Sequence record: SRR20825006_999 | Length of the DNA: 64,000 nucleotides | Strand: one strand, 5' to 3' | Part shown: positions 52,851 to 64,000 of the stretch, in pieces | Layout of the letters: every line of letters begins with the position of its first letter | Numbering within the stretch: the first letter of the stretch is position 1 | Made by a program: the position numbers and the translations under genes | Notes under the pieces: generated by a model | Seen by the model: only the letters and a program-made list of their open reading frames with translations | What the model was told of the DNA's origin: nothing | The model's database searches: none

Positions 52851-52873
52851 AAAAAGGGAGCTTCCTCCCTTTT
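52849..52873. terminator. Bidirectional terminator
   Basis: AAAAGGGAG-CTTC-CTCCCTTTT between convergent genes. Confidence 0.8.
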
Positions 52874-52887
52874 CAGTCAAGCTTACT

Positions 52888-53229
52888 TTAAACAAGTAAT
52901 TTTAATTCTTGAGCTACCTTGCGATTGTACTGGAAGGTTAAATCTTTATAGTTTATTAAATCTACTATTATTCCAATAAAGCAAAGCCCAGCAGTTAATA
53001 TGTATAAAATTCCCATTCCTATTTGATTGAGGATGAAACGATGAACACCTGCAACACCAATAAAGCCAAGTAAACATAATAGCAGAATTGTTTGAGGATC
53101 TTTTCTCCTAGCTCTGTAAACATTCGCAAATTTAACACTTTGTTCGGGAGTAAGATCAGATAATAGCCTATCGAGATATAACGCTTCGTCCCCCTCTGCC
53201 TCTGGTATTAGATCAATAATTTTTGACAT
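52888..53229 (-). CDS. TM2 domain-containing protein
   Basis: LGFIGVAGVHRF...GILYILTAGLCFIGIIVDL. Confidence 0.88.
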   Translation of the reverse strand: MSKIIDLIPEAEGDEALYLDRLLSDLTPEQSVKFANVYRARRKDPQTILLLCLLGFIGVAGVHRFILNQIGMGILYILTAGLCFIGIIVDLINYKDLTFQYNRKVAQELKLLV

Positions 53230-53533
53230 CACTTTCTCCGTAGATATTATTATGTGTTTTATTTTTAAAAAGATTTATCCAAATACTGATAATCCGAAAA
53301 CTCAAAATCAGTACGGTTAATATCCCTAAAAGATTCGAATTTATGGAATGTTTAAATTCTCCTCTAAAAAGAAATGCAATAGAATGACCTAAACCATTTC
53401 CGGGGCAAAAAGTTATTCCCGCACGTTCAAGTAAACAAAAAGTTTCACCTGTTTCATATGGGTTCATTGTCGCCATTAGGATTAATCCTATTAGGAAGAC
53501 TACCCATTCTATATGTGGCTTTAATTTTTTCAC
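53213..53533 (-). CDS. DUF2752 domain membrane protein
   Basis: FCLL...G..FCPGNGLGHS matches the CPGCG-type pattern; adjacent to a TM2 gene. Confidence 0.75.
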   Translation of the reverse strand: MKKLKPHIEWVVFLIGLILMATMNPYETGETFCLLERAGITFCPGNGLGHSIAFLFRGEFKHSINSNLLGILTVLILSFRIISIWINLFKNKTHNNIYGESDVKNY

Positions 53534-53565: not shown

Positions 53566-56500
53566 CTACTTTATAAAATTTTTCTTTCTAAAGTAGTGTG
53601 ATATTGTAAAGAACAAACTATTAGACCTATAGAGCTTGCTGGTGGAAAAATCTGTGCCAACCTTAAACTGCCAATAGTTAGTAAATTTGTGCTCTAATGT
53701 CGCCCTTCCGGTAAAGAAAACACCATCTTTTTGTTCATGCTTTCCCATAACTTCAACGTCAATCAGGGTCTTGTATTCATAATCATTTGGTTTTCTAAAC
53801 CTGAAATCCAGCCCTACACCTTGAACAAATAGGTTATCAGGCGTATAGAAAGGAGTTCCTGATGTGAAAGTCTTAGAAGCGTCAGCAAATGCAAGTTCTG
53901 TAATCAATCTACCCCTATAGGTTTTATTCCAAGGTTGTAAATAAGCTCTTCCAACACCATCATACTCAAACACATTATTGGTGTAATATTTTGCTGAACC
54001 AGAAACTGAAGTAACTATCAAATCTCCAAACCAGAAGTCTTCACGATATATTTCAGCTTGAGCTTTATAAATATCTTGGGAAAGCGAGTTCTGCGTTAAT
54101 ACTGGAGCAAGTGTCAATTTACCAATAGTGAAGGTAGAGTCTATGTTATACGATAGTGAGGTAAAAACTTCGCCAATAATTTTAGAATCACCAAAAAATG
54201 TGGATGCACCTGCTTGGAAACCCCATATATAATCCGATGATCGATTATCAAATAAATAACCTAAACCATAAAAATTTGAGCTTCTAGTAGTGTCTCTATT
54301 TGTTGTTGCAGTAAATAAATCTTCGGCTGTAATTGTATGTGTTATATTTCGTCTGTTCCCAAGTTCTACTGAAATACCGCCACGGCCTGAAGAGTTATTA
54401 AAGTTGTCGGTTTGATAATCTCCAAATACGGACACTTTAGGCCCTTCCGTCCAACGATAATCAGAGTATAATCTATTAATTTCGTTAGCTGAGAAAAATG
54501 CGGGGTATTTTGAATAAAATTTCTTTCGATCTGGCAAAGTTTTAAACTGAATATCTTCACTAATTAGAGTATCCGATGAAGTATTATATGCACGACTATT
54601 AACGAAAAGCGGGTATAGAATTTCATAAGCTTGTTCCTGTCTACCTTCATAAAATAAGGTATTCCCAGAAAATATTCTTAGACTATCATAACTTGGTCTT
54701 TCTTCTAAACTCAACTTTGATTGAGTATAAAATTTATCGAAATTTCGAGTTTGGGCAATCCATTCCAATTTTGTGAGAGGGCTAAATCCCACAGCAAAAC
54801 CCGCCCAATACAAAGCTTTTGTATAATTTAGCTGCTCATAACCATATAAATTAGCAAGTATATTAGCAAATTGAACTAATTGAGGATGACTGCTAGATGG
54901 GAAATTATCAACAAGAGCTAATGTACTGTCTGCGCTTTCGTAATAGAACGATCTTTGTAAAGTAAAGGCATAAAGACTGTCGGAGTTTGGTTTGGACTTA
55001 ATTAAAGCTAATAACCCTTTTTTCTGAACAGGCCAATTTTCTTGATTTTCAATGCTGGATAAATAGTTTATCGCAAGGTTCGCGTTGCTAGGCTCTAATT
55101 CCAGTTCTCTTTCTAACCATCTAGATTCAAAAGCTTCACTGTAAAGCCCTAAAGCTACTACAAACTTATTTTTTAATTCTATCACTTGCATATTGTGATA
55201 TTTATCCCACAAATCTTCTAGGTAATCCTCTGCCCTTTTAAATTCCGATTCCCAACCATAGAACATGATAAGTCTGTTAATATCATTTCTAGTCCAAACA
55301 GGGTTTCTATATAGTCTTGTTTCAAGAATCTGTAAAGCACGTAATACTTGTTGAAATTCTACGCTTAAGGCAATGAGTTGCTCTTGTGCAACTAAACTAT
55401 TCGGACTTCTCTCGTATCGCCATATTGCATCTCTTAATCTATTATCTGGGGTGTTAGCATCATCAGTATTGAACTCATCATCAGCATCTAAATTATAATT
55501 AGAAAATTCAGCTAATACTTTATTTTCCAATGCTTTTTTGAACTGCGGGTCGAAATAAAGTCTGTTATCTAGGTTAGGGAAGTTCAGAGTATCTTTAGAG
55601 GAGTAAAACTGATACAGATAACCATCCCAAATTTTTGTGAATGCAAAGCCATCTACTTCTTCATTCATAAACTCTTCTACATCGGCACGCCTAGTGCTTG
55701 GCACATACATAAACCAATGATTTTCTGTACTCAGGTTTGACTTTACAGTATAATTCGAAGGGTACCTAGTTGTTAACAGATACGAATTTCCTTGCTCCTT
55801 GTATGACGCTTCTTTCTTACGCCAGTCTTGCGCTACCCTAGCTCCGCGTTCTGCTGTAACCATCCGTATAAAAGGGTATGATTTTCTTGTGTACTGTACT
55901 CTATCTTTAAACACATGATATAAACCATAGCCATGTTCTTTACTACCTTTCCAGCCTAATCCCAATGGGTTACGACTTTCAAATTCATCTTCTTTTCTTT
56001 GTGAAACCTGGAACACATCATCTGGGTGAATAAAATGAGTCCAGATTCCTGTAAGTAGTTGAAGACTGTGTTGATCAAATAATGAGTTATCTCCCATAGT
56101 GTACCCACTTGTTATTCGTGGATAATCAAAAATCTTAGAGTTGTATGGTTCATTACCGAATTCCCGCTCACCACCATCTTCTTTATAACCCAAATACAAT
56201 GAACTTAGAACTTTTATAGACGGCATTCCGCGTGTAATTGCTTGTACACCTACTGAGTCGATGTAATTAGTTGGTGGTACATAAGTTCTAGGCAGGTCTC
56301 CTAAACGGTCAATTCTCCATCTTTTACGAGAAGATTGCAAAGAGGCGGCCATAAAGTTCATATTATCCCAATCAGCTAACCAAAGCGAAAAGTGATTGTA
56401 GCCATGAAAAGCTAATTCATGTCTCGATTCAGCAACATCTTTTGCAAGATAAATACTTGCCTCAACATCTTTACCTTCTATTGAAATACGGCTAGACTGC

Positions 56501-57453
56501 CACTCTTCAAAATCGAAAGGTGGAGTAATATTAGCATTATAGTTGAATGCTGTCATTGCAGAGTAGTCAATGTTAAATGTATCAGCGAAAGCCTTAGTAT
56601 CTGGCCACCAGATTTTAGAAACAAATGTTGCTTGGTCTACTCCATATTCGCTAGCAATAGGTTCTATTTTCTCATTATATAATGGAGATGGAAAATCATC
56701 CAAAAATATTGTACCAACGTTTGCAACACTATATGGAATTCCACCTAAACCTTTAAGAATAGTAGAAAAAAGGACACCTCTATAATCTTTCTGGACAGGC
56801 GTATTACTATTAATTGTAATTACCTCGCCTAACCCTATCTTATTTCCTATTATTACAGGAAAGGTTGTATCATTTTTAGCAGATGCATAAACAATTATAT
56901 CATCCTTGAATTGAGACCTCGCGAAACCATCATGTGTTATACTAAAATCGGTTCCATAATCACGACCTTGGAAATTAGAAAATAAGTTTCTATCAAAATG
57001 AAAGCCTTTAGTATTTTTCTGTATCAAAAAATCTGATTGTGGCTTAATTCCTTGTAAAAAGGAGAAATTATCATAACTAAGTGGCGATGTAAATAGTAAG
57101 CTTCCACCATTAACTACAAAACGAATTATCTTTTCGTTATCTGAATCGGAAATTTCATTTATTAAATAAGATGTATTTATTATTAAACGAATGCTTTTAG
57201 GAATCTCTACACCCTCAGAAATAAGGCCTAAATCTAAAGTTTTGTACGGAACTTTAGTATAGTCTAAAGCTCGCGTTACTTGTAAAGATATTTCTTCCCC
57301 AACTTCATCTTTTCTATTTTTTATAATTAGAACTACAGGGTCAGACTTAACAAATTGAATGTCAGGAGTAAATAAACTTCCATCTTGACAAGAGATTAAG
57401 CTTGCAACTACCAAAACAGGAATTATAATTCTATTTAAATATCGTAGAAGCAC
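53566..57453 (-). CDS. DUF2194-type polysaccharide deacetylase fused to a TPR-like region and a C-terminal beta-barrel
   Basis: Lipobox LISC; FLDDFPSP, ELAFHGYNH, YVPPTN and THFIHPDD; helical middle; amphipathic beta-strands in the last about 290 aa. Confidence 0.7.
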   Translation of the reverse strand: MLLRYLNRIIIPVLVVASLISCQDGSLFTPDIQFVKSDPVVLIIKNRKDEVGEEISLQVTRALDYTKVPYKTLDLGLISEGVEIPKSIRLIINTSYLINEISDSDNEKIIRFVVNGGSLLFTSPLSYDNFSFLQGIKPQSDFLIQKNTKGFHFDRNLFSNFQGRDYGTDFSITHDGFARSQFKDDIIVYASAKNDTTFPVIIGNKIGLGEVITINSNTPVQKDYRGVLFSTILKGLGGIPYSVANVGTIFLDDFPSPLYNEKIEPIASEYGVDQATFVSKIWWPDTKAFADTFNIDYSAMTAFNYNANITPPFDFEEWQSSRISIEGKDVEASIYLAKDVAESRHELAFHGYNHFSLWLADWDNMNFMAASLQSSRKRWRIDRLGDLPRTYVPPTNYIDSVGVQAITRGMPSIKVLSSLYLGYKEDGGEREFGNEPYNSKIFDYPRITSGYTMGDNSLFDQHSLQLLTGIWTHFIHPDDVFQVSQRKEDEFESRNPLGLGWKGSKEHGYGLYHVFKDRVQYTRKSYPFIRMVTAERGARVAQDWRKKEASYKEQGNSYLLTTRYPSNYTVKSNLSTENHWFMYVPSTRRADVEEFMNEEVDGFAFTKIWDGYLYQFYSSKDTLNFPNLDNRLYFDPQFKKALENKVLAEFSNYNLDADDEFNTDDANTPDNRLRDAIWRYERSPNSLVAQEQLIALSVEFQQVLRALQILETRLYRNPVWTRNDINRLIMFYGWESEFKRAEDYLEDLWDKYHNMQVIELKNKFVVALGLYSEAFESRWLERELELEPSNANLAINYLSSIENQENWPVQKKGLLALIKSKPNSDSLYAFTLQRSFYYESADSTLALVDNFPSSSHPQLVQFANILANLYGYEQLNYTKALYWAGFAVGFSPLTKLEWIAQTRNFDKFYTQSKLSLEERPSYDSLRIFSGNTLFYEGRQEQAYEILYPLFVNSRAYNTSSDTLISEDIQFKTLPDRKKFYSKYPAFFSANEINRLYSDYRWTEGPKVSVFGDYQTDNFNNSSGRGGISVELGNRRNITHTITAEDLFTATTNRDTTRSSNFYGLGYLFDNRSSDYIWGFQAGASTFFGDSKIIGEVFTSLSYNIDSTFTIGKLTLAPVLTQNSLSQDIYKAQAEIYREDFWFGDLIVTSVSGSAKYYTNNVFEYDGVGRAYLQPWNKTYRGRLITELAFADASKTFTSGTPFYTPDNLFVQGVGLDFRFRKPNDYEYKTLIDVEVMGKHEQKDGVFFTGRATLEHKFTNYWQFKVGTDFSTSKLYRSNSLFFTISHYFRKKNFIK

Positions 57454-59488
57454 GACTCTCCTTTTTCGGATAGATATTTAAAAGTACATCTCCTAGTTTA
57501 GATTCATTCTCACGGTTAGTTATCTCATAAATTACAGCGTCTTCAGACTCAAAATATATACTCAATTTTCTATTCTCTAAAGTAGAAAACGTTGCAATCC
57601 ATTGCTCTAAATCTCGCATAACTATTGGGGCATCATACAGTATACCTTGTTGAATTGATCCGTAAGGAGCTTTTTCAAGAAATAGAAAGATACTAGCTGG
57701 TGGAACCGCTTCAACTTTTCTCAATTCTAAAGGCACTGTTAAATATTTCTGATACAACGAGTCAATCTCTCCATAACTTCTAAGAAAGTAATCATAATTC
57801 ATAAAATAGTGCCTGTTTCTTGATAATGCTCTATCTATCTCGGGACCAACAGTGGCATAAGAATATGCTAATCGTTCGTTTATTATTTTATAATAGGCAT
57901 CAAAAAAACCATTAGGAAGAGTTTTAGGAAGAGATTTATTAGTGTTAATACCACCTGTAACTGTAATTACAGTAGCGAAAAATGAAACTACTAAAAACAT
58001 CTGAATGGCTTCTGGAAACCTTTTCTTAAGCCTCAAGACGAAAGACATAAAACGAACTCCTGAATGGAAGACTAACCCCGCCATAATTGAGATTAGCAAG
58101 CTATAAAGTATAGTTAGCTGATCAGGGTCTACTATTAGTGAATCAGTTTGGAAATAAGGTGTAAACAAAAAAGAAACGCCTATAAAGAAAATAGAAAAAA
58201 TGATATCGTCGCCAACTTTCTTCTGCTTTGTTACTTTAAAATGAATTAAAAAAGCTAGCAAGAGGACAAGTGCTAAACCTAGATATACAATACTTAAAAT
58301 ATCTAGATCCATAATCAAGTTAGGGTAATAGCTAAAAACTAAAGTACTAAATAACTGTAATTCGAAAAATTGAATGACATCAATACCATTCAATAATAAA
58401 TAAAAAATATAGGGAGCAAGCGTACTTACAAGAACCACAAAAAGATAGAAGCTAACTTTAGATAAAGAACTAAAATATCTGCGCTTTGGTAAAAATAATA
58501 GGCCTAATACGAGCAATGGATAAAGTATAATAAGTAATACGAATAAGTTTATTAACCCAGTAGCTATAATCCCAATAGTAACATAAGACCAAGGTGCTTT
58601 TTCAATGGAGCGCAAATTTCTTAAGAACAACACCGCTGTAGGTAAAGCAAAACATATTGCTAACGACAATGAGCTCGTAGCTCCTTCAATATCTAGAGAA
58701 ACTGGCAATACAAGCGTTGGTATCAATGCATAAACACTCATTCCAAAAAGTGCCGCAATAGGATTTTTGCCTCGAGTTAAATCTCTAATCATCCAAAAGA
58801 TGAGCATTGCCAGAAAAAATGATATTAGACTACCCAATATCTTTAATATCATTTCGGGACTTACTTGTGTTAATGTGCTAAAAACCTGGACTAAAGAATG
58901 CATTCCCTTTGGATTTGGTATATCTCCAAAATAGTTTTGTAGAGGAATATTTTTAATAGAATTTAACTCGAAATACCAACTTCTGCTGTAAGGTGCAGAA
59001 TTTTTAAATACTGGGATCAAACGAATTATTGCAGCAGTTATCCCTATAAATACTGCGGTAATAGTAAACTTATTGTCTAGAATTGAAAATTTTGGAAGCT
59101 CGGAAACTCGATCTCTTATTGTTTTCTTTTTCTTTGTAGTTAAAGTTTCAATGAACTCAACATGAATTTTTAGAACTCTATTCTCTATTACTCTAACTAC
59201 TGAGCTAAGTTTTACTCCATTTCTAACCTCTTTATATATATATGCAAGAATTGGAAAAAGTAATAGACAAGCCAAAAGACTTATGAAATCGTATAAGTGA
59301 AGATTCGCGAGTACCATAACATCGATAAGAATCAACCCTCCTACAGCTACAAAAGTATATATAAGTTTATCAATACCTCGTAAAGTTCTAGCGTGAGGTA
59401 GGAATTTAGGGCCGACCCACCCAAATAATACGACGAAGCAAAGTATAACTCGAAAAACAGAGAATAAAACTAGTAACGAATATGGCAT
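57431..59488 (-). CDS. Polytopic membrane protein, possible GT-C-fold glycosyl/modifier transferase
   Basis: About 13-15 hydrophobic segments, a periplasmic loop with PKGMH and a soluble C-terminal domain; lies in the EPS operon. Confidence 0.5.
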   Translation of the reverse strand: MPYSLLVLFSVFRVILCFVVLFGWVGPKFLPHARTLRGIDKLIYTFVAVGGLILIDVMVLANLHLYDFISLLACLLLFPILAYIYKEVRNGVKLSSVVRVIENRVLKIHVEFIETLTTKKKKTIRDRVSELPKFSILDNKFTITAVFIGITAAIIRLIPVFKNSAPYSRSWYFELNSIKNIPLQNYFGDIPNPKGMHSLVQVFSTLTQVSPEMILKILGSLISFFLAMLIFWMIRDLTRGKNPIAALFGMSVYALIPTLVLPVSLDIEGATSSLSLAICFALPTAVLFLRNLRSIEKAPWSYVTIGIIATGLINLFVLLIILYPLLVLGLLFLPKRRYFSSLSKVSFYLFVVLVSTLAPYIFYLLLNGIDVIQFFELQLFSTLVFSYYPNLIMDLDILSIVYLGLALVLLLAFLIHFKVTKQKKVGDDIIFSIFFIGVSFLFTPYFQTDSLIVDPDQLTILYSLLISIMAGLVFHSGVRFMSFVLRLKKRFPEAIQMFLVVSFFATVITVTGGINTNKSLPKTLPNGFFDAYYKIINERLAYSYATVGPEIDRALSRNRHYFMNYDYFLRSYGEIDSLYQKYLTVPLELRKVEAVPPASIFLFLEKAPYGSIQQGILYDAPIVMRDLEQWIATFSTLENRKLSIYFESEDAVIYEITNRENESKLGDVLLNIYPKKESRASTIFK

Positions 59489-59491
59489 ACG

Positions 59492-60346
59492 TTATTGTTC
59501 TTTCAAGTTAGTAATTATTGTTGGATTAGCTGGAAGCGTATTCAAAGATATATTGCTAATAAAATACGGAAAACCTTCAGGCCGCAGTCGATTTGAAGCT
59601 GCTAAAATTGTTTCTGGTGTTATAGCAAAATCAATAATTAAAAAAGGTAACCCACTCTGCTTTGAATGAGTTCTAATGAGGGCCAATCTATCTTCATACT
59701 CGTCATCAGTAACTATTTTATATTCTTTGGTATCAAAATTATACATAGTGGCTACATCTTCTATAGCAACTGCATCTACAATATCTTTTGTTTCTTCAAG
59801 AAGGAATAACCCAGCGTTCTGAATAATCACGATATTAGGATATCGTTCTCTAATTCCTCTAATTAGTTCGAGCATATACGGTGCCAAGTGATTCCTACTT
59901 GTATAGGGAGATACGGCATCAACAGTATCCAAGAACAGTCCATCTACGCCTTTTTCTATAATTCGGGGAATTACTTTATCCAGAATCAATTTACGAGTTT
60001 CAGGATCTTCTAAATCCAAAAAGGGACTATCCCAGTTCTCATTAATTCCTAGAAAACCAATCTCTTCTAAATCTGGATAATACCACCTGTACTTATCTAC
60101 TTCGCCAAGTGTAACGTATGCAATAACAGACGGACCTTGCTGCTTGAATTTGTGTATATCGGCTGGTGTATAGAAATCAGGCTCGATAATAATCATATTA
60201 TACTTAGCTACTTCCGAAGGGTCTACCCTTGCATAACTAATACCAAATGGTGCAATACTTTTTTTATTTATAGTATGTAACTCCGTTGTTTTGCACTGCA
60301 CAATAAACCCAATAAAGATATATAGAAAAAGTTTTTTTAATATCAT
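59492..60346 (-). CDS. Endo-alpha-1,4-polygalactosaminidase (PelA hydrolase/GH114-GH166-like), probable lipoprotein
   Basis: IIIEP, IAYVTLGE, NENW, GVDGLFLDTVD, IIQNAG and VAIED; Cys after the hydrophobic N-terminus. Confidence 0.85.
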   Translation of the reverse strand: MILKKLFLYIFIGFIVQCKTTELHTINKKSIAPFGISYARVDPSEVAKYNMIIIEPDFYTPADIHKFKQQGPSVIAYVTLGEVDKYRWYYPDLEEIGFLGINENWDSPFLDLEDPETRKLILDKVIPRIIEKGVDGLFLDTVDAVSPYTSRNHLAPYMLELIRGIRERYPNIVIIQNAGLFLLEETKDIVDAVAIEDVATMYNFDTKEYKIVTDDEYEDRLALIRTHSKQSGLPFLIIDFAITPETILAASNRLRPEGFPYFISNISLNTLPANPTIITNLKEQ

Positions 60347-61980
60347 TATAGCCCTTCATTTACACCTAAAGCTAAACAGTTTTGCCAGCCTAACATTTGA
60401 ATAAGTTGAATTACAGTAGGAATTAAAACCATATCGAATTGACGATCAGCTCTTTCTATAAGATTTTTACTAAGCAATTCTATGAGTTCATCGTCTGTTT
60501 TACCATCCGCCTCAAGATTAGACTCAATAAAATCTACTACATATTCAAAAACACAAATTATTTTACCAGTCCAAGGTATTCGATCAGCTTCAAGCCCTTG
60601 AGGGCTTCCCTTACCATTTACCCATTCATGATGGGTTTTAATACCCTCTATTACATCATTAGAAATAGGCAATTGTGCAACCATAGTGGCTCCGGAAATA
60701 GGATGAGAAAGCTCGGACTCTATGCTTGCAATGTTGCTTAAGCCTGCGGCTCCTACGTAACCAATATCATGGAGCTTTGCGGTAAGTTTGATGATTTCTG
60801 TTTCATCATCTTCTAAGCCAAAAAGCATTGCAAATCTTTCTACAAAGGCTATTAGCCGAGGTGAATGGAATTGAGTTTTAGGTCTTTGAGATTCTATCTC
60901 GCGTAATATTGCGTAATAAGTATCAATCAATTCAAACGAAAATGTATGATTGTCTTCACGGTATGATAACAAACTACCAAGCATCGTCGATATCGTTTTA
61001 ATTATACCTTCTGCACGCTTTGAATGATCACCCTCTTCTTTTAATACCAACCACAAAAACCCATGTGTGTATTCACCTTTAATTGGAAATATAAACGGGA
61101 TAGTAGACTTCTTCTTAAATGAAAATGAACCACTATTTGATAATTCATAGTTGCCATTATCATAACTATAAAAAGCTTCAGAACTAGTAGATAGCAGACC
61201 AGCCCTAAATTCATCAGAGAGATTTTTTTGAGTAACTAGTACCGGCTTGCTACCAGCATACTCAACAACTGCACCTTGCTCTGCCTTAAGTGAATTAATT
61301 ATATAGAGTAATACTAATTGTGCTAAGCCTTGTGTGTTAAGAGCACCTGAACCTAAATTCTCAACAAGACTAGTAATTCGCGCTGTGTATTCTTTCTGTG
61401 ACTTCTTTTCTTTTTTGTCCAATTTTATAAGCCATTCAGAAAGTATTCTTCCTACAATCGATAACTTTGGCTCTACGCTATCGGGACTTTTTGTGTGTGG
61501 GCCAACTACATAAATGCCCCAAATCTCTCCTTGTTTGTTATAAATAGGAATGTGTTCACAATTACCAATAGTGTGAGATGATATTCCGTGTCCCCTAAAC
61601 TCATCGTCCCATTGTCTCTTTTTTTCTAGATTCTGTATTTGATTTTCAAAAACTTGAATCGATTCTTTTTCTTGTAGTGTGTATTTTTTTGATTCTGACT
61701 CATTTTTATCCTTTTTGAGCAAATTTTCTACAAACATATGCCTTCTTGCAAGAAGCAGAGACTCACCTTCTTTCTTATAGACAAAATGTAAAGGTGCTCT
61801 ATATAGAATATCAATCCAACTTGCTATATCAGAGAAAGAAGGTAATTCTTTCCTAGACATATGTTCAGCAGAGAGGGACCAGAATTCTAGTTCATCTTCA
61901 ATTCCAAATGTTTCCATTGCAAAAGCCTTACCTAGGCGAGAGCTAACGGTATTTAAATAATCCTTTACATCTTTAATCAT
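60346..61980 (-). CDS. GAF-like plus degenerate HD-GYP domain protein
   Basis: TQFHSPR, LHDIG, HPISG, HHEWVNGKGSPQGL, IPWTGKII and QFD. Confidence 0.75.
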   Translation of the reverse strand: MIKDVKDYLNTVSSRLGKAFAMETFGIEDELEFWSLSAEHMSRKELPSFSDIASWIDILYRAPLHFVYKKEGESLLLARRHMFVENLLKKDKNESESKKYTLQEKESIQVFENQIQNLEKKRQWDDEFRGHGISSHTIGNCEHIPIYNKQGEIWGIYVVGPHTKSPDSVEPKLSIVGRILSEWLIKLDKKEKKSQKEYTARITSLVENLGSGALNTQGLAQLVLLYIINSLKAEQGAVVEYAGSKPVLVTQKNLSDEFRAGLLSTSSEAFYSYDNGNYELSNSGSFSFKKKSTIPFIFPIKGEYTHGFLWLVLKEEGDHSKRAEGIIKTISTMLGSLLSYREDNHTFSFELIDTYYAILREIESQRPKTQFHSPRLIAFVERFAMLFGLEDDETEIIKLTAKLHDIGYVGAAGLSNIASIESELSHPISGATMVAQLPISNDVIEGIKTHHEWVNGKGSPQGLEADRIPWTGKIICVFEYVVDFIESNLEADGKTDDELIELLSKNLIERADRQFDMVLIPTVIQLIQMLGWQNCLALGVNEGL

Positions 61981-61989
61981 AACAAAGCC

Positions 61990-63621
61990 TCAATAAGCAG
62001 AGTAGTAAAAATAATCCAGATGCTTAAAAAATTTCTTAGCTAATAAGCCAGAAATTAAAGCAAAAGTAATTGAACCAAAAATTAAACCCACCGTTGCGTA
62101 TTCAAATGAAAATACACGGCTACATATAAAGCCTACAATTAGGTTAACTCCTAGTGATGGAATCATTGAATACAGTACAAATTCAGGACGATTCATCGTA
62201 AAAAAGAACAATGAATTTAAAAGTCCATAAATTAGAAATACATATCCAAAACTTGCCATCCAAAAAACTTTAAAAGTAATCGGGTTGGCGAAAAAATCTT
62301 TTATTTCGGGCACTTTATCTTCAAATACTCTAAGAGAGAGTACGCCATAGTACGTCACGATAATAGAAATAATGCTTATAACAAGAAGCAAAACTATTTG
62401 AGTGATATAAAACCGTTTGAAATACCTATTAAAGTACTTAATTCCACTGAGTTTGGCTTTCTTTTGAACTGGTATAATATTCTTGGAGAATAACTGGATA
62501 CTAAATTCTAGCATTGCAACAGTTAAAACCAGAGTTATTAAAGCCCAATCCATTCCCAATTCATAGGGTGTATTGAACCAAATTATATACGGTGGAATAA
62601 TTTCTCCAGTAGACCATGCTAGTAACCTATCTACGAAAAGGAAACTAAAATAAGAGAAGCCATACACAAAATATCGGTAGTTATTGTAATAGCTTACTTC
62701 AGTATTTGGTAAAGATTGCTTAAATAATTGTTGCCTTAAAGAGCGAATTTTAAATTGGTAGTAAACAATAAAGTAAACTGTTAGAACTACTGTGGATGCA
62801 ATGATTCCAATCCATTGTGATATATATATACCAAAGTTTAGTACTTCCATACCAAATATTACTACTGCTGTACCTACTAAAACGCTAACAAGTATCACTG
62901 CTCGTTGTTCACTAGCGTATAACACCGCTGCAGCAAGCATCATAAATGAGATTAAAATTAAGTAGGTCATCGAAAGAAATACCATTTTTAATGGATAAAA
63001 TGGTAAGATGACATTCAAACCAATTAGCAATAATACTGAAAGTAGAATTACAGGAATTGCTAGCTTAAGCACCCCTTTAATGGCCTTATAAGCTAAAAAA
63101 TAGTTCTCTTCGCCTTTATATTTAGAAACTAAACGCCCTAAAACCTGAATAAAACCACCAGTTAAAACAAATGCGGCAATGGTTCCAAAAGCAATAACAG
63201 AAGCTTGAGCTTCATTAAAATACAACCAGGCCCAAAGTGCATATTGAAAAATAATAATGGCTACGATTTGTGATATCATTGGCAGTGAGAACAAAAGGCC
63301 TGCGCTATAATATTTCAAGAACATTGTTACGCTATCACTGAAATTACCAAGCTTTATATGCTCCTCTTCCTCAACTTGATCCTGTTTAGAATAGCGTTTC
63401 TTTATTTTTGTATAAACGTCTTCAGCTAATTCAAAAACAGTTGGATAATTAAAATCGCTTATAGCATCAACATCTCTAATTCCAATAGACTCAATGGTAG
63501 CCGCCACAGCCCAGCTACTAACAGGATTACCAACAAGTTCTTCTACTTTATTAACTATGTCATTGAATCGATCTTCTGGTGTAAACTCAACTTCAGGAAG
63601 AATATCAGTGTGCGTACTCAT
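61990..63621 (-). CDS. Divergent PelG-like exopolysaccharide exporter
   Basis: About 12 TM segments, FVDRLLAW and YELGMD; directly downstream of the PelF-like GT4. Confidence 0.65.
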   Translation of the reverse strand: MSTHTDILPEVEFTPEDRFNDIVNKVEELVGNPVSSWAVAATIESIGIRDVDAISDFNYPTVFELAEDVYTKIKKRYSKQDQVEEEEHIKLGNFSDSVTMFLKYYSAGLLFSLPMISQIVAIIIFQYALWAWLYFNEAQASVIAFGTIAAFVLTGGFIQVLGRLVSKYKGEENYFLAYKAIKGVLKLAIPVILLSVLLLIGLNVILPFYPLKMVFLSMTYLILISFMMLAAAVLYASEQRAVILVSVLVGTAVVIFGMEVLNFGIYISQWIGIIASTVVLTVYFIVYYQFKIRSLRQQLFKQSLPNTEVSYYNNYRYFVYGFSYFSFLFVDRLLAWSTGEIIPPYIIWFNTPYELGMDWALITLVLTVAMLEFSIQLFSKNIIPVQKKAKLSGIKYFNRYFKRFYITQIVLLLVISIISIIVTYYGVLSLRVFEDKVPEIKDFFANPITFKVFWMASFGYVFLIYGLLNSLFFFTMNRPEFVLYSMIPSLGVNLIVGFICSRVFSFEYATVGLIFGSITFALISGLLAKKFFKHLDYFYYSAY

Positions 63622-64000
63622 ATTCCCTCCTTTTTAGATACTCAACAAGCTCTAATACCGATTCTACACTTACATTATTCTTTAATATTTCTTTATCATT
63701 GTTTAGCAGCTTCTGATAACTCTCGTAATATGCATTAACAGATTTATCGGTAGTAAAATTAAGGAGAACTTTTTCTCTAGCCTTAATCCCTAGCTCAATT
63801 CGGAGCCTGTCATCTTGTAATAATTTTACTACACCATTTGCAATTTCTTGTGGCTCCCGTGGTTTACACATAATACCACAGCCTTCAAGAGCATCTTTAA
63901 TACCCCCAACATCAGTAGCAACTACTGGCCTTTGACAACTCATAGACTCAATAACGGTGTAAGGAAACCCTTCAGATATGGATGTAAGGATAGAGATGTC
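63605..64000 (-). CDS. pelF: PelF-like GT4 glycosyltransferase (C-terminal part, truncated by the window edge)
   Basis: The frame is open to 64000 and reads DISILTSISEGFPYTVIESMSCQRPVVATDVGG, a GT4 EX7E motif in a PelF-like LTSISEG context. Confidence 0.7.
   Translation of the reverse strand, partial: DISILTSISEGFPYTVIESMSCQRPVVATDVGGIKDALEGCGIMCKPREPQEIANGVVKLLQDDRLRIELGIKAREKVLLNFTTDKSVNAYYESYQKLLNNDKEILKNNVSVESVLELVEYLKRREYEYAH

Follow-up and report, generated by a model that had tools for sequence, protein, structure and literature searches.

A PelA_DA-type deacetylase fused to a predicted TPR-porin in pel-like operons of Bacteroidota and Balneolota

Division of labour between a lipid-anchored deacetylase and a porin that combines tetratricopeptide repeats (TPR) with a beta-barrel is known from Escherichia coli, where the lipoprotein PgaB, a CE4-type enzyme acting on beta-1,6-linked N-acetylglucosamine, and the porin PgaA are encoded by two genes. 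In Pseudomonas aeruginosa the same logic, a Pel deacetylase beside a TPR-plus-barrel porin, is also implemented by separate polypeptides: PelA, itself a fusion of hydrolase and deacetylase, and PelB, which needs a ring of twelve PelC lipoproteins. PelA binds residues 332-436 of the PelB TPR, while the PelB barrel is 16-stranded like those of PgaA and BcsC (PMC12141448), and the deacetylase of PelA is assigned either to CE4 (PMC7890745) or to CE21 (PMC13254593). Another type of enzyme, PelA_DA, is encoded together with PelF and PelG in the pel operon of Bacillus cereus ATCC 10987; it is about 610 amino acids (aa) long, carries an N-terminal transmembrane helix and ends after a beta-rich domain (PMC7890745; PMC13254593). 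This founding member of families CBM114 and CE26 (PDB 9ZAU) consists of an alpha/beta/alpha carbohydrate-binding module, a carbohydrate esterase domain and the beta-rich domain, performs zinc-dependent de-N-acetylation of alpha-1,4-linked N-acetylgalactosamine (GalNAc) oligomers and is needed for Pel-dependent biofilm formation (PMC13254593). Joining of a modifying enzyme and an export pore in one chain is described for cellulose, namely for BcsZC of Zymomonas, in which the BcsC porin and a periplasmic cellulase form one protein (Bundalovic-Torma et al., 2020; PMC7112194), and the available text of the same survey reports rearrangement, fission and loss of pel genes and no PelA-PelB fusion. 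In this work we address a single gene, further referred to as the fused gene, situated on the minus strand of a 64,000-nucleotide (nt) stretch of sequence record SRR20825006_999 (the window, meaning this whole stretch), whose product joins a PelA_DA-type deacetylase to a predicted TPR-porin.

With a probability of about 0.72 we read this gene as encoding, in one lipoprotein, those steps of a Pel-type (alpha-1,4-GalNAc/galactosamine-like) exopolysaccharide pathway that take place in the periplasm and at the outer membrane. The ORF itself, its homology to deacetylases with the active site intact, the surrounding operon and the conservation of the fusion are documented below, whereas the substrate, lipidation, TPR and barrel folds and pore function are inferred. 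Its nearest characterized relative is PelA_DA of B. cereus: the two are homologous over aa 44-533 of the fused protein, both match DUF2194 and possess the same catalytic set, and the genes of both lie in pel-type operons, with PelF and PelG in B. cereus and with PelF and a PelG-like protein here. They differ in that the transmembrane helix found at the N-terminus in the Gram-positive enzyme is missing from the fused protein and a signal peptide with lipobox stands in its place, in the extra ~640 aa of helical repeats and putative barrel, and in the diderm host. In comparison with Pseudomonas, the system described here, probably that of a marine Balneola, uses a deacetylase of CE26 type, has the hydrolase split off and gives no match to the Pfam model of the PelB barrel; from BcsZC it is distinguished by the polymer (cellulose there), by the nature of the enzyme (a hydrolase there) and by the phylum.

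The open reading frame (ORF) extends through 1295 uninterrupted codons, in line with the long single frame proposed by the initial annotation, and starts with GTG located 5 nt after a Shine-Dalgarno-like AAGGAG. All motifs singled out in that annotation lie where it had placed them: VASLISC at aa 16-22, LDDFP at 251-255, HGYNH at 350-354, YVPPTN at 391-396, HFIHPDD at 473-479, the acidic linker at 656-668 and FTISHYF at 1282-1288. In comparison with three orthologues, the N-terminal, helical and beta regions all show a ratio of non-synonymous to synonymous substitution rates (dN/dS) of 0.05-0.10 (one of the dS values being saturated); thus the frame is coding along its full length, and all domains of the fused protein are under purifying selection. 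Two independent studies (runs X1 and X3) yielded contigs that span the full 3888 bp of the gene and differ from it by 9 and 16 substitutions, respectively, but by no insertions or deletions; runs X6 and X7 cover it in pieces only. The N-terminus has the layout of a signal peptide, in which an n-region made basic by R4 and R8 precedes a hydrophobic core and the lipobox L-I-S-C (aa 19-22), and a lipobox-like motif is present in 61 of the 77 homologous ORFs having complete 5′ ends, so the product is a predicted lipoprotein, presumably lipidated at Cys22. Related loci were retrieved with an alignment of the deacetylase region (A2), and the 80 best relatives (L011-L090, named genome records), from at least 582 DUF2194 genes in GTDB representatives, were taken for comparison; in the C-terminal alignments, A1 (the C-terminal family alignment) and A3, no stretch was conserved enough for such retrieval.

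Assignment of the N-terminal half as a metal-dependent polysaccharide deacetylase with intact active site is supported by family, structural and residue-level matches. The fragment aa 40-558 corresponds to Pfam DUF2194 (PF09960) with E 1.1e-69 and 235.8 bits against a cut-off of 30.4, and among PDB sequences phmmer aligned aa 44-533 to one entry only, 9ZAU, over chain residues 40-503 (E 1.8e-39). Within this alignment D252/D253, H350/H354, P393-P394, R446, H476 and D479 fall on D262/D263, HxxxH, P405, R458, H488 and D491 of 9ZAU, which belong to the catalytic apparatus of PelA_DA as motifs MT1 (D262/D263), MT2 (HxxxH) and MT3 (P405), the base-activating R458, and H488 with D491 (PMC13254593). 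Of the 81 ORFs found in the related loci, 80-81 retain D252, D253, H350, H354, R446, H476 and D479 (79-81 if P393-P394 are included), and the catalytic positions are invariant or nearly so in A2. Since the motifs initially described as CE4-like align with catalytic residues of 9ZAU, they represent the CE26 active site: the proposal of a metal-dependent deacetylase holds, but the enzyme is of PelA_DA type (DUF2194 corresponding to CBM114 plus CE26) rather than a CE4 deacetylase resembling PelA or PgaB. Judged by these residues, the domain is most likely enzymatically active. By analogy with the three-domain organization of 9ZAU, aa 559-640 probably correspond to the third, beta-rich domain of PelA_DA.

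The deacetylase is separated from the remaining part of the protein by a segment (aa 640-672) containing nine Asp and Glu versus three Lys and Arg, with columns poorly conserved in both A1 and A2. For the C-terminal half we consider an arrangement of TPR-like helices followed by an outer-membrane barrel to be quite probable. The helical stretch and the beta-rich end suggested by the initial annotation are both reproduced in hydrophobic moments of the family alignment, where alpha periodicity dominates in 13 of 17 blocks across aa 656-995 and beta periodicity in 13 of 15 blocks across aa 996-1295; by the identical measure, E. coli PgaA is of beta type in 12 of 14 blocks of its barrel and in 9 of 24 of its TPR part. 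The beta-rich part begins near aa 1000 (nt ~54,456), close to the nt ~54,445 first proposed. Within aa 1005-1288 a crude dyad scan outlined 14 segments resembling amphipathic strands, compared to 16 in the 16-stranded barrel of PgaA. Among 40 family members Pfam TPR_19 was detected in nine and TPR_14 in seven. When the beta-rich part (aa 1000-1295) was compared separately with ESM-Atlas by language-model features, PgaA_barrel accounted for 13 of the 30 closest clusters, with a best score of 0.94, followed by BcsC_C, the PelB barrel and Slam barrels.

The closest correspondence by profile-profile comparison was also obtained with PgaA of E. coli. Alignment of A1 to a 16-sequence PgaA family profile (A6) by hhalign gave a probability of 90.7% and E 1.3e-6 over 362 columns, the match beginning in the last TPRs and continuing collinearly over most of the barrel (aa ~861-1251 against PgaA 351-766). 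For calibration, the known relatives PgaA and BcsC score 90.8% by the same tool, with TPR parts alone aligning, while negative controls gave 0.05% (unrelated membrane-protein profile), 0.1-0.2% (cross-region pairs) and 0.1% (reversed alignments). Taken alone, the TPR-like region reached 24% against the TPR of PgaA and 36% against BcsC, whose profile (A7) is shallow because the homologue search returned close relatives only, the 120 listed all being at least 80% identical. Many homologues terminate in aromatic, beta-signal-like motifs, and in some of them the beta region is followed by the peptidoglycan-binding SPOR domain, which fits a barrel with both ends facing the periplasm. Several Balneolaceae-type homologues of 1580-1820 aa carry extra domains after the beta region (P0008, P0011, P0012, P0016, P0019 and L023 2802-7724): SPOR, with E 4.9e-21 in P0008 but under the Pfam cut-off in L023, P0011 and P0019, as well as transthyretin-like or CarboxypepD_reg domains.

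A number of observations weigh against a barrel of the exporter type and against a Pel assignment as a whole. The strand scan yields 10 segments in a part of the soluble N-terminal domain, hence it is not specific for membrane barrels. The 641 C-terminal residues of the window's own protein (aa 655-1295) match no Pfam family, TPR included, and no PDB sequence at E<=1; the barrel models PF21197, PF24604 and PF05420 do not exceed their cut-offs in Balneola genomes G001, G012 and G013, and are likewise missing from the Pfam result for the 40 family members, as far as its 25 listed families (of 35 at E<=1) show; Pfam PgaA_barrel is not significant on the fused family. Atlas scores of 0.9 and above are expected by chance 4-10 times per 100 and are not calibrated for parts of proteins. 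The 90.7% obtained with A1 depends on the alignment used, since a 74-sequence alignment derived from the related loci lowers the score of the TPR-plus-barrel part against full PgaA to 17.7%; barrel against barrel, the probability is 55% with the A1-derived alignment and 27% with the locus-derived one, and comparison of A1 with lone PgaA or BcsC sequences gives 2.4% and 5.8%, values of little informative worth. Finally, general Pfam and NCBIfam scans of the locus ORFs, in which no accession-directed search was made, revealed no PelC, PelD or PelE.

The same evidence defines how much room is left for other functions of the C-terminal half. If the barrel were an outer-membrane anchor only, keeping the deacetylase and its helical arm beneath that membrane, the polymer would exit by another, unrecognized route or stay periplasmic or cell-bound. 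Such a role would agree with the net charge of the beta region, +2 as opposed to the strongly anionic make-up of PelB (PMC12141448), and with the weakness of the barrel-only likeness to PgaA noted above, and yet we find it improbable: searches of three 99%-complete Balneola genomes (G001, G012 and G013) found no separate PgaA, PelB or BcsC barrel and no other synthase-type porin, the nearest neighbours by features and by profiles are barrels of exporters that follow TPRs just as in the fused protein, and its ~290 aa agree in length with the part of PgaA taken as the barrel (aa 513-807). G001, which has 86% of sampled words in common with the window's DNA, served as the whole-genome proxy. A soluble C-terminal beta domain, for instance a carbohydrate-binding one or a beta-sandwich array, would turn the protein into a large periplasmic or surface lipoprotein enzyme, and both the failure of barrel families to match by hidden Markov models and the low specificity of the strand scan are compatible with this, as are the SPOR and transthyretin-like domains found beyond the beta region of some homologues. 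We likewise give it little credence in view of dyad periodicity as strong as in the PgaA barrel, Atlas neighbours that are all outer-membrane barrels, the collinear hhalign match to the PgaA barrel, for which no control exceeded 0.2%, and the beta-signal-like ends of many homologues.

The TPR and barrel might also act as a Slam-like or type-V-like self-exporter bringing the lipidated deacetylase to the surface, in which case the polymer would be modified after its export. Some lipidated autotransporters are likewise built with a lipid at the N-terminus and a barrel at the C-terminus, Slam (SlipAM) barrels do appear at Atlas ranks 27-28 with score 0.92, and 38 of 61 homologues have at least two Asp or Glu within eight residues after the lipobox Cys, recalling the surface-export signal of Bacteroidota lipoproteins. 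Nevertheless, this scenario is very unlikely, for PgaA, BcsC and PelB barrels outrank those of Slam (13 of 30 clusters against 2), the PgaA profile runs through TPR and then barrel in order, neither Autotransporter nor SlipAM is among the 25 of 35 Pfam families listed at E<=1, and the operon would be left with no channel for its polymer, given that no other barrel was found in the three Balneola genomes.

The preferred reading, deacetylase plus TPR-porin in one chain, presumes that the fusion is native. The concern accompanying the first description of this gene, that homologues might consistently be two genes and the fusion an assembly artefact, was checked in three samples. Within the genus, DUF2194 was matched in 21 of 23 genomes searched, each time as part of an uninterrupted frame of 1283-1312 aa (no match was found in 18 genomes from other genera of the same order); all 40 matches over the cut-off in a sample of 401 genomes of the phylum are in stop-free frames of 1184-1641 aa; and the 80 related loci contain 81 ORFs, 73 of which are long forms, three are cut by contig ends (<1000 aa) and five are unfused (620-852 aa). 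Nearly all long forms are covered end to end by the full-length profile. They come from Flavobacteriaceae (47), Balneolaceae (14), unclassified Bacteroidota (5), Roseivirgaceae (3) and other Flavobacteriia (2), plus one metagenome-assembled genome (MAG) labelled Comamonadaceae and one record with no name; isolates are represented too, including Flavobacterium columnare ATCC 23463 and Fodinibius salsisoli, and the gene of Balneola sp. (L012) is 91% identical to the window's. The five unfused genes belong to Kryptoniota-like and Caldilineaceae records, and on an unrooted FastTree phylogeny of the deacetylase domain (81 rows, five of them unfused) the difference between fused and unfused states amounts to one change.

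Search from the opposite end of the protein led to a similar picture. Among 1.84 billion representative proteins the C-terminal half found 62, of which 34 are 1068-1820 aa long with the match at residues ~600-1370, one is a 7220-aa protein with weak similarity in multiple stretches and 27 are shorter. Pfam analysis run on 39 of these 62 detected DUF2194 in all 34 long proteins, the five devoid of it being 657-785 aa in length. These five C-terminal-only entries look like fragments, because P0003, P0007 and P0053 keep the tail of DUF2194 while P0013 and P0050 are without signal peptide. Thus, the fusion is the conserved native form, carried by hundreds of Bacteroidota and Balneolota genomes. 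That an assembly or annotation error joined two genes into one long ORF, a suspicion fed by the unusual architecture and by the few short entries holding the C-terminal part only, is practically negligible against the same open frame in all three genome samples, whole-length contigs from two independent studies, dN/dS of 0.05-0.10 in every region and the fragmentary appearance of those short entries.

Among the unfused representatives, the Caldilineaceae MAG L082 (4756-9466, plus strand) has two tandem DUF2194 genes of 719 and 852 aa, both without lipoboxes. In the Kryptoniota-like L083 the 297-aa ORF following the deacetylase was considered as a split-off barrel and rejected, being a multi-pass inner-membrane protein. 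A complete Flavobacterium-type cluster with the fused gene was observed in L039, a MAG labelled Variovorax paradoxus; this is probably a mis-binned contig and not a proteobacterial occurrence.

The positions of the fused gene, its parts and its neighbours are collected in Table 1.

Table 1. Parts of the fused gene and adjacent features of the window, with the grounds for their assignment (positions counted from the first letter of the 64,000-nt stretch)
Feature	Position	Strand	Content or basis
Whole fused ORF, 1295 aa	53566..57453	-	Runs from a lipoprotein signal through a PelA_DA-type deacetylase, a linker and helical repeats to a beta-rich end
Signal peptide with lipobox, aa 1-22 (L-I-S-C, Cys22)	57388..57453	-	Read from sequence
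DUF2194 match, aa 40-558: CBM114-like and CE26 deacetylase domains, PelA_DA type	55780..57336	-	Pfam PF09960, PDB 9ZAU
aa 559-640, probably the third (beta-rich) domain of PelA_DA	55534..55779	-	Three-domain description of 9ZAU (PMC13254593) and conservation in A2
Acidic linker DADDEFNTDDANT, aa 656-668	55450..55488	-	Sequence
Helical TPR-like region, aa ~673-999	54457..55437	-	Alpha periodicity, TPR matches in relatives, hhalign
C-terminal beta-rich part (aa 1000-1295), probably an outer-membrane barrel of PgaA/PelB/BcsC type	53569..54456	-	Periodicity, Atlas neighbours, hhalign
3′ end of GT4 glycosyltransferase (PelF), cut by the window edge	63605..64000	-	Orthologue in L012
543-aa multi-pass membrane protein, PelG-like	61990..63621	-	66/80 loci
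544-aa HD-GYP-type HD-domain protein, regulator candidate	60346..61980	-	Pfam HD_5, E 1.4e-13
284-aa lipoprotein-like glycoside hydrolase, relative of the PelA hydrolase domain	59492..60346	-	Pfam GH114, PDB 5TCB
685-aa multi-pass membrane protein (TM685), no family match	57431..59488	-	23-nt overlap between its stop and the fused gene's start
DUF2752 and TM2-domain small genes, co-oriented (52888-53533), then terminator-like hairpin (52851-52874)	52851..53533	-	

Gene content upstream of the fused gene is that of a pel-like operon, which this gene closes. Only the last 131 aa of PelF are contained in the window, and they score 28.3 bits on NCBIfam PelF (NF038011), while the full orthologue in L012 reaches 151.2 bits (cut-off 100). 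For the PelG-like protein, Pfam PelG (PF16933) was recognized in 10 of 17 aligned orthologues (best E 2.9e-11); the window's copy gave no match to it at E<=1, and the family profile found nothing among PDB sequences at the same threshold. The separate 284-aa hydrolase matches GH114 (E 7e-16) and PelA 5TCB (E 2.6e-18) and is found in 67 of the 80 loci. The predicted PelA hydrolase activity is placed on a lipoprotein of its own, encoded two genes upstream of the fused gene. TM685, the gene between them, is syntenic in 71 of the 80 loci and, judging from the overlap of its stop with the start of the fused gene, is translationally coupled to it; no match was found for it in Pfam, NCBIfam or PDB (profile included, E<=1). 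In the Atlas it is surrounded by clusters without names from Bacteroidota and Bacillota, which hint weakly at GT-C-like 'RgtA/B/C/D-like' or DUF6541 proteins. TM685 may belong to the core of this pel variant as a component not described so far. Of the 80 loci, 62-71 preserve the order PelF, PelG-like protein, hydrolase, TM685, fused gene.

Other neighbours are less constant. The HD-GYP gene is present in 16 of the 80 loci, from Balneolaceae and Kryptoniota-like records, and its absence from the Flavobacterial loci suggests a different regulation there; its product has G-S-P at the usual place of GYP (HHEWVNGKGSPQG). Downstream of the fused gene, the DUF2752 and TM2 genes are syntenic in nine of the 80 loci, all of them close relatives, and the hairpin behind them is a probable end of the transcription unit. 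The operon of L012 (127-3846, plus strand) opens with three genes, namely a response regulator that has a GAF-like domain, followed by a PelF-like paralogue (398 aa, 89 bits against the PelF cut-off of 100) and then by full PelF. In Flavobacterium davisii (L064, ~5561, plus strand) matches to the PelG-like protein and to the hydrolase share one stop-to-stop frame, and TM685 gave no match; this could be a further gene fusion or rearrangement in a fish-pathogen lineage.

Assembled along the path of the polymer, these components would work as follows. PelF would polymerize the sugar, and the PelG-like protein would pass the chain across the inner membrane. After cleavage of the signal peptide and lipidation of Cys22, aa ~23-640 of the fused protein would form one PelA_DA-type module with CBM114-like, zinc-dependent CE26 and beta-rich domains, of which the CBM114-CE26 part would bind the nascent polymer and deacetylate a portion of it. 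The now cationic chain would then be guided by ~330 aa of TPR-like helices behind the acidic linker towards the ~290-aa C-terminal beta-barrel, presumably an outer-membrane exit pore related to PgaA, PelB and BcsC, and the separate PelA_H-like hydrolase would trim or clear the polymer. In such a scheme, the covalent link would replace the docking of PelA on the TPR of PelB accepted for Pseudomonas (PMC12141448; PMC7890745), and the lipid anchor may partly do the job of PelC lipoproteins. Because they are covalently joined, enzyme and channel would be fixed adjacent to each other and in the ratio of 1:1, as opposed to the non-covalent docking in Pseudomonas. In B. cereus the transmembrane helix of PelA_DA is modelled against PelG, and this analogy allows an extended version of the scheme to be drawn: the lipid anchor would be retained in the inner membrane beside the PelG-like exporter with the barrel in the outer membrane, so that one polypeptide, composed of sugar-binding domain, deacetylase, TPR rail and pore, would span the periplasm as a trans-envelope conduit, replacing PelA, PelB and PelC with no free polymer intermediate. 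We regard this extension as possible though unlikely.

Neither a PelA_DA-TPR-porin fusion nor a Flavobacterial or Balneolaceae pel locus was found described in the literature, with possible overlap to the epsSMASH preprint, the available text of which reports pel-like clusters in classes without known pel operons. The initial annotation had presented the joining of enzyme and porin as unusual; with BcsZC as a published example, the idea is less novel than was implied there. In the available text of the PelA_DA paper (PMC13254593), 'TPR' and 'outer membrane' occur nowhere, 'Gram-negative' is used for Pseudomonas only and no diderm form is described. Databases name the fused protein 'DUF2194 domain-containing protein' or 'hypothetical protein'.

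The link of the inner-membrane Pel machinery to PelA and PelB/PelC was called unclear in the 2026 paper on PelA_DA (PMC13254593), and coupling of deacetylation to export is an open question for the Gram-negative Pel, poly-N-acetylglucosamine and alginate systems. A conserved 1:1 fusion offers a ready-made model for it: stoichiometry is fixed, the domain order suggests the sequence of events along the path of the polymer, and the chain can be severed at the linker for testing whether proximity suffices. Besides, the PelA_DA type of deacetylase, so far described only for Gram-positive pel operons, appears to be used by diderms as well. Pel-like loci of this kind are common in Flavobacteriia, Balneolaceae and Roseivirgaceae, including Flavobacterium and Tenacibaculum, genera with fish pathogens, and since most of them are without the neighbouring HD-GYP, response-regulator and GAF genes of Balneolaceae, the polymer is probably controlled differently there.

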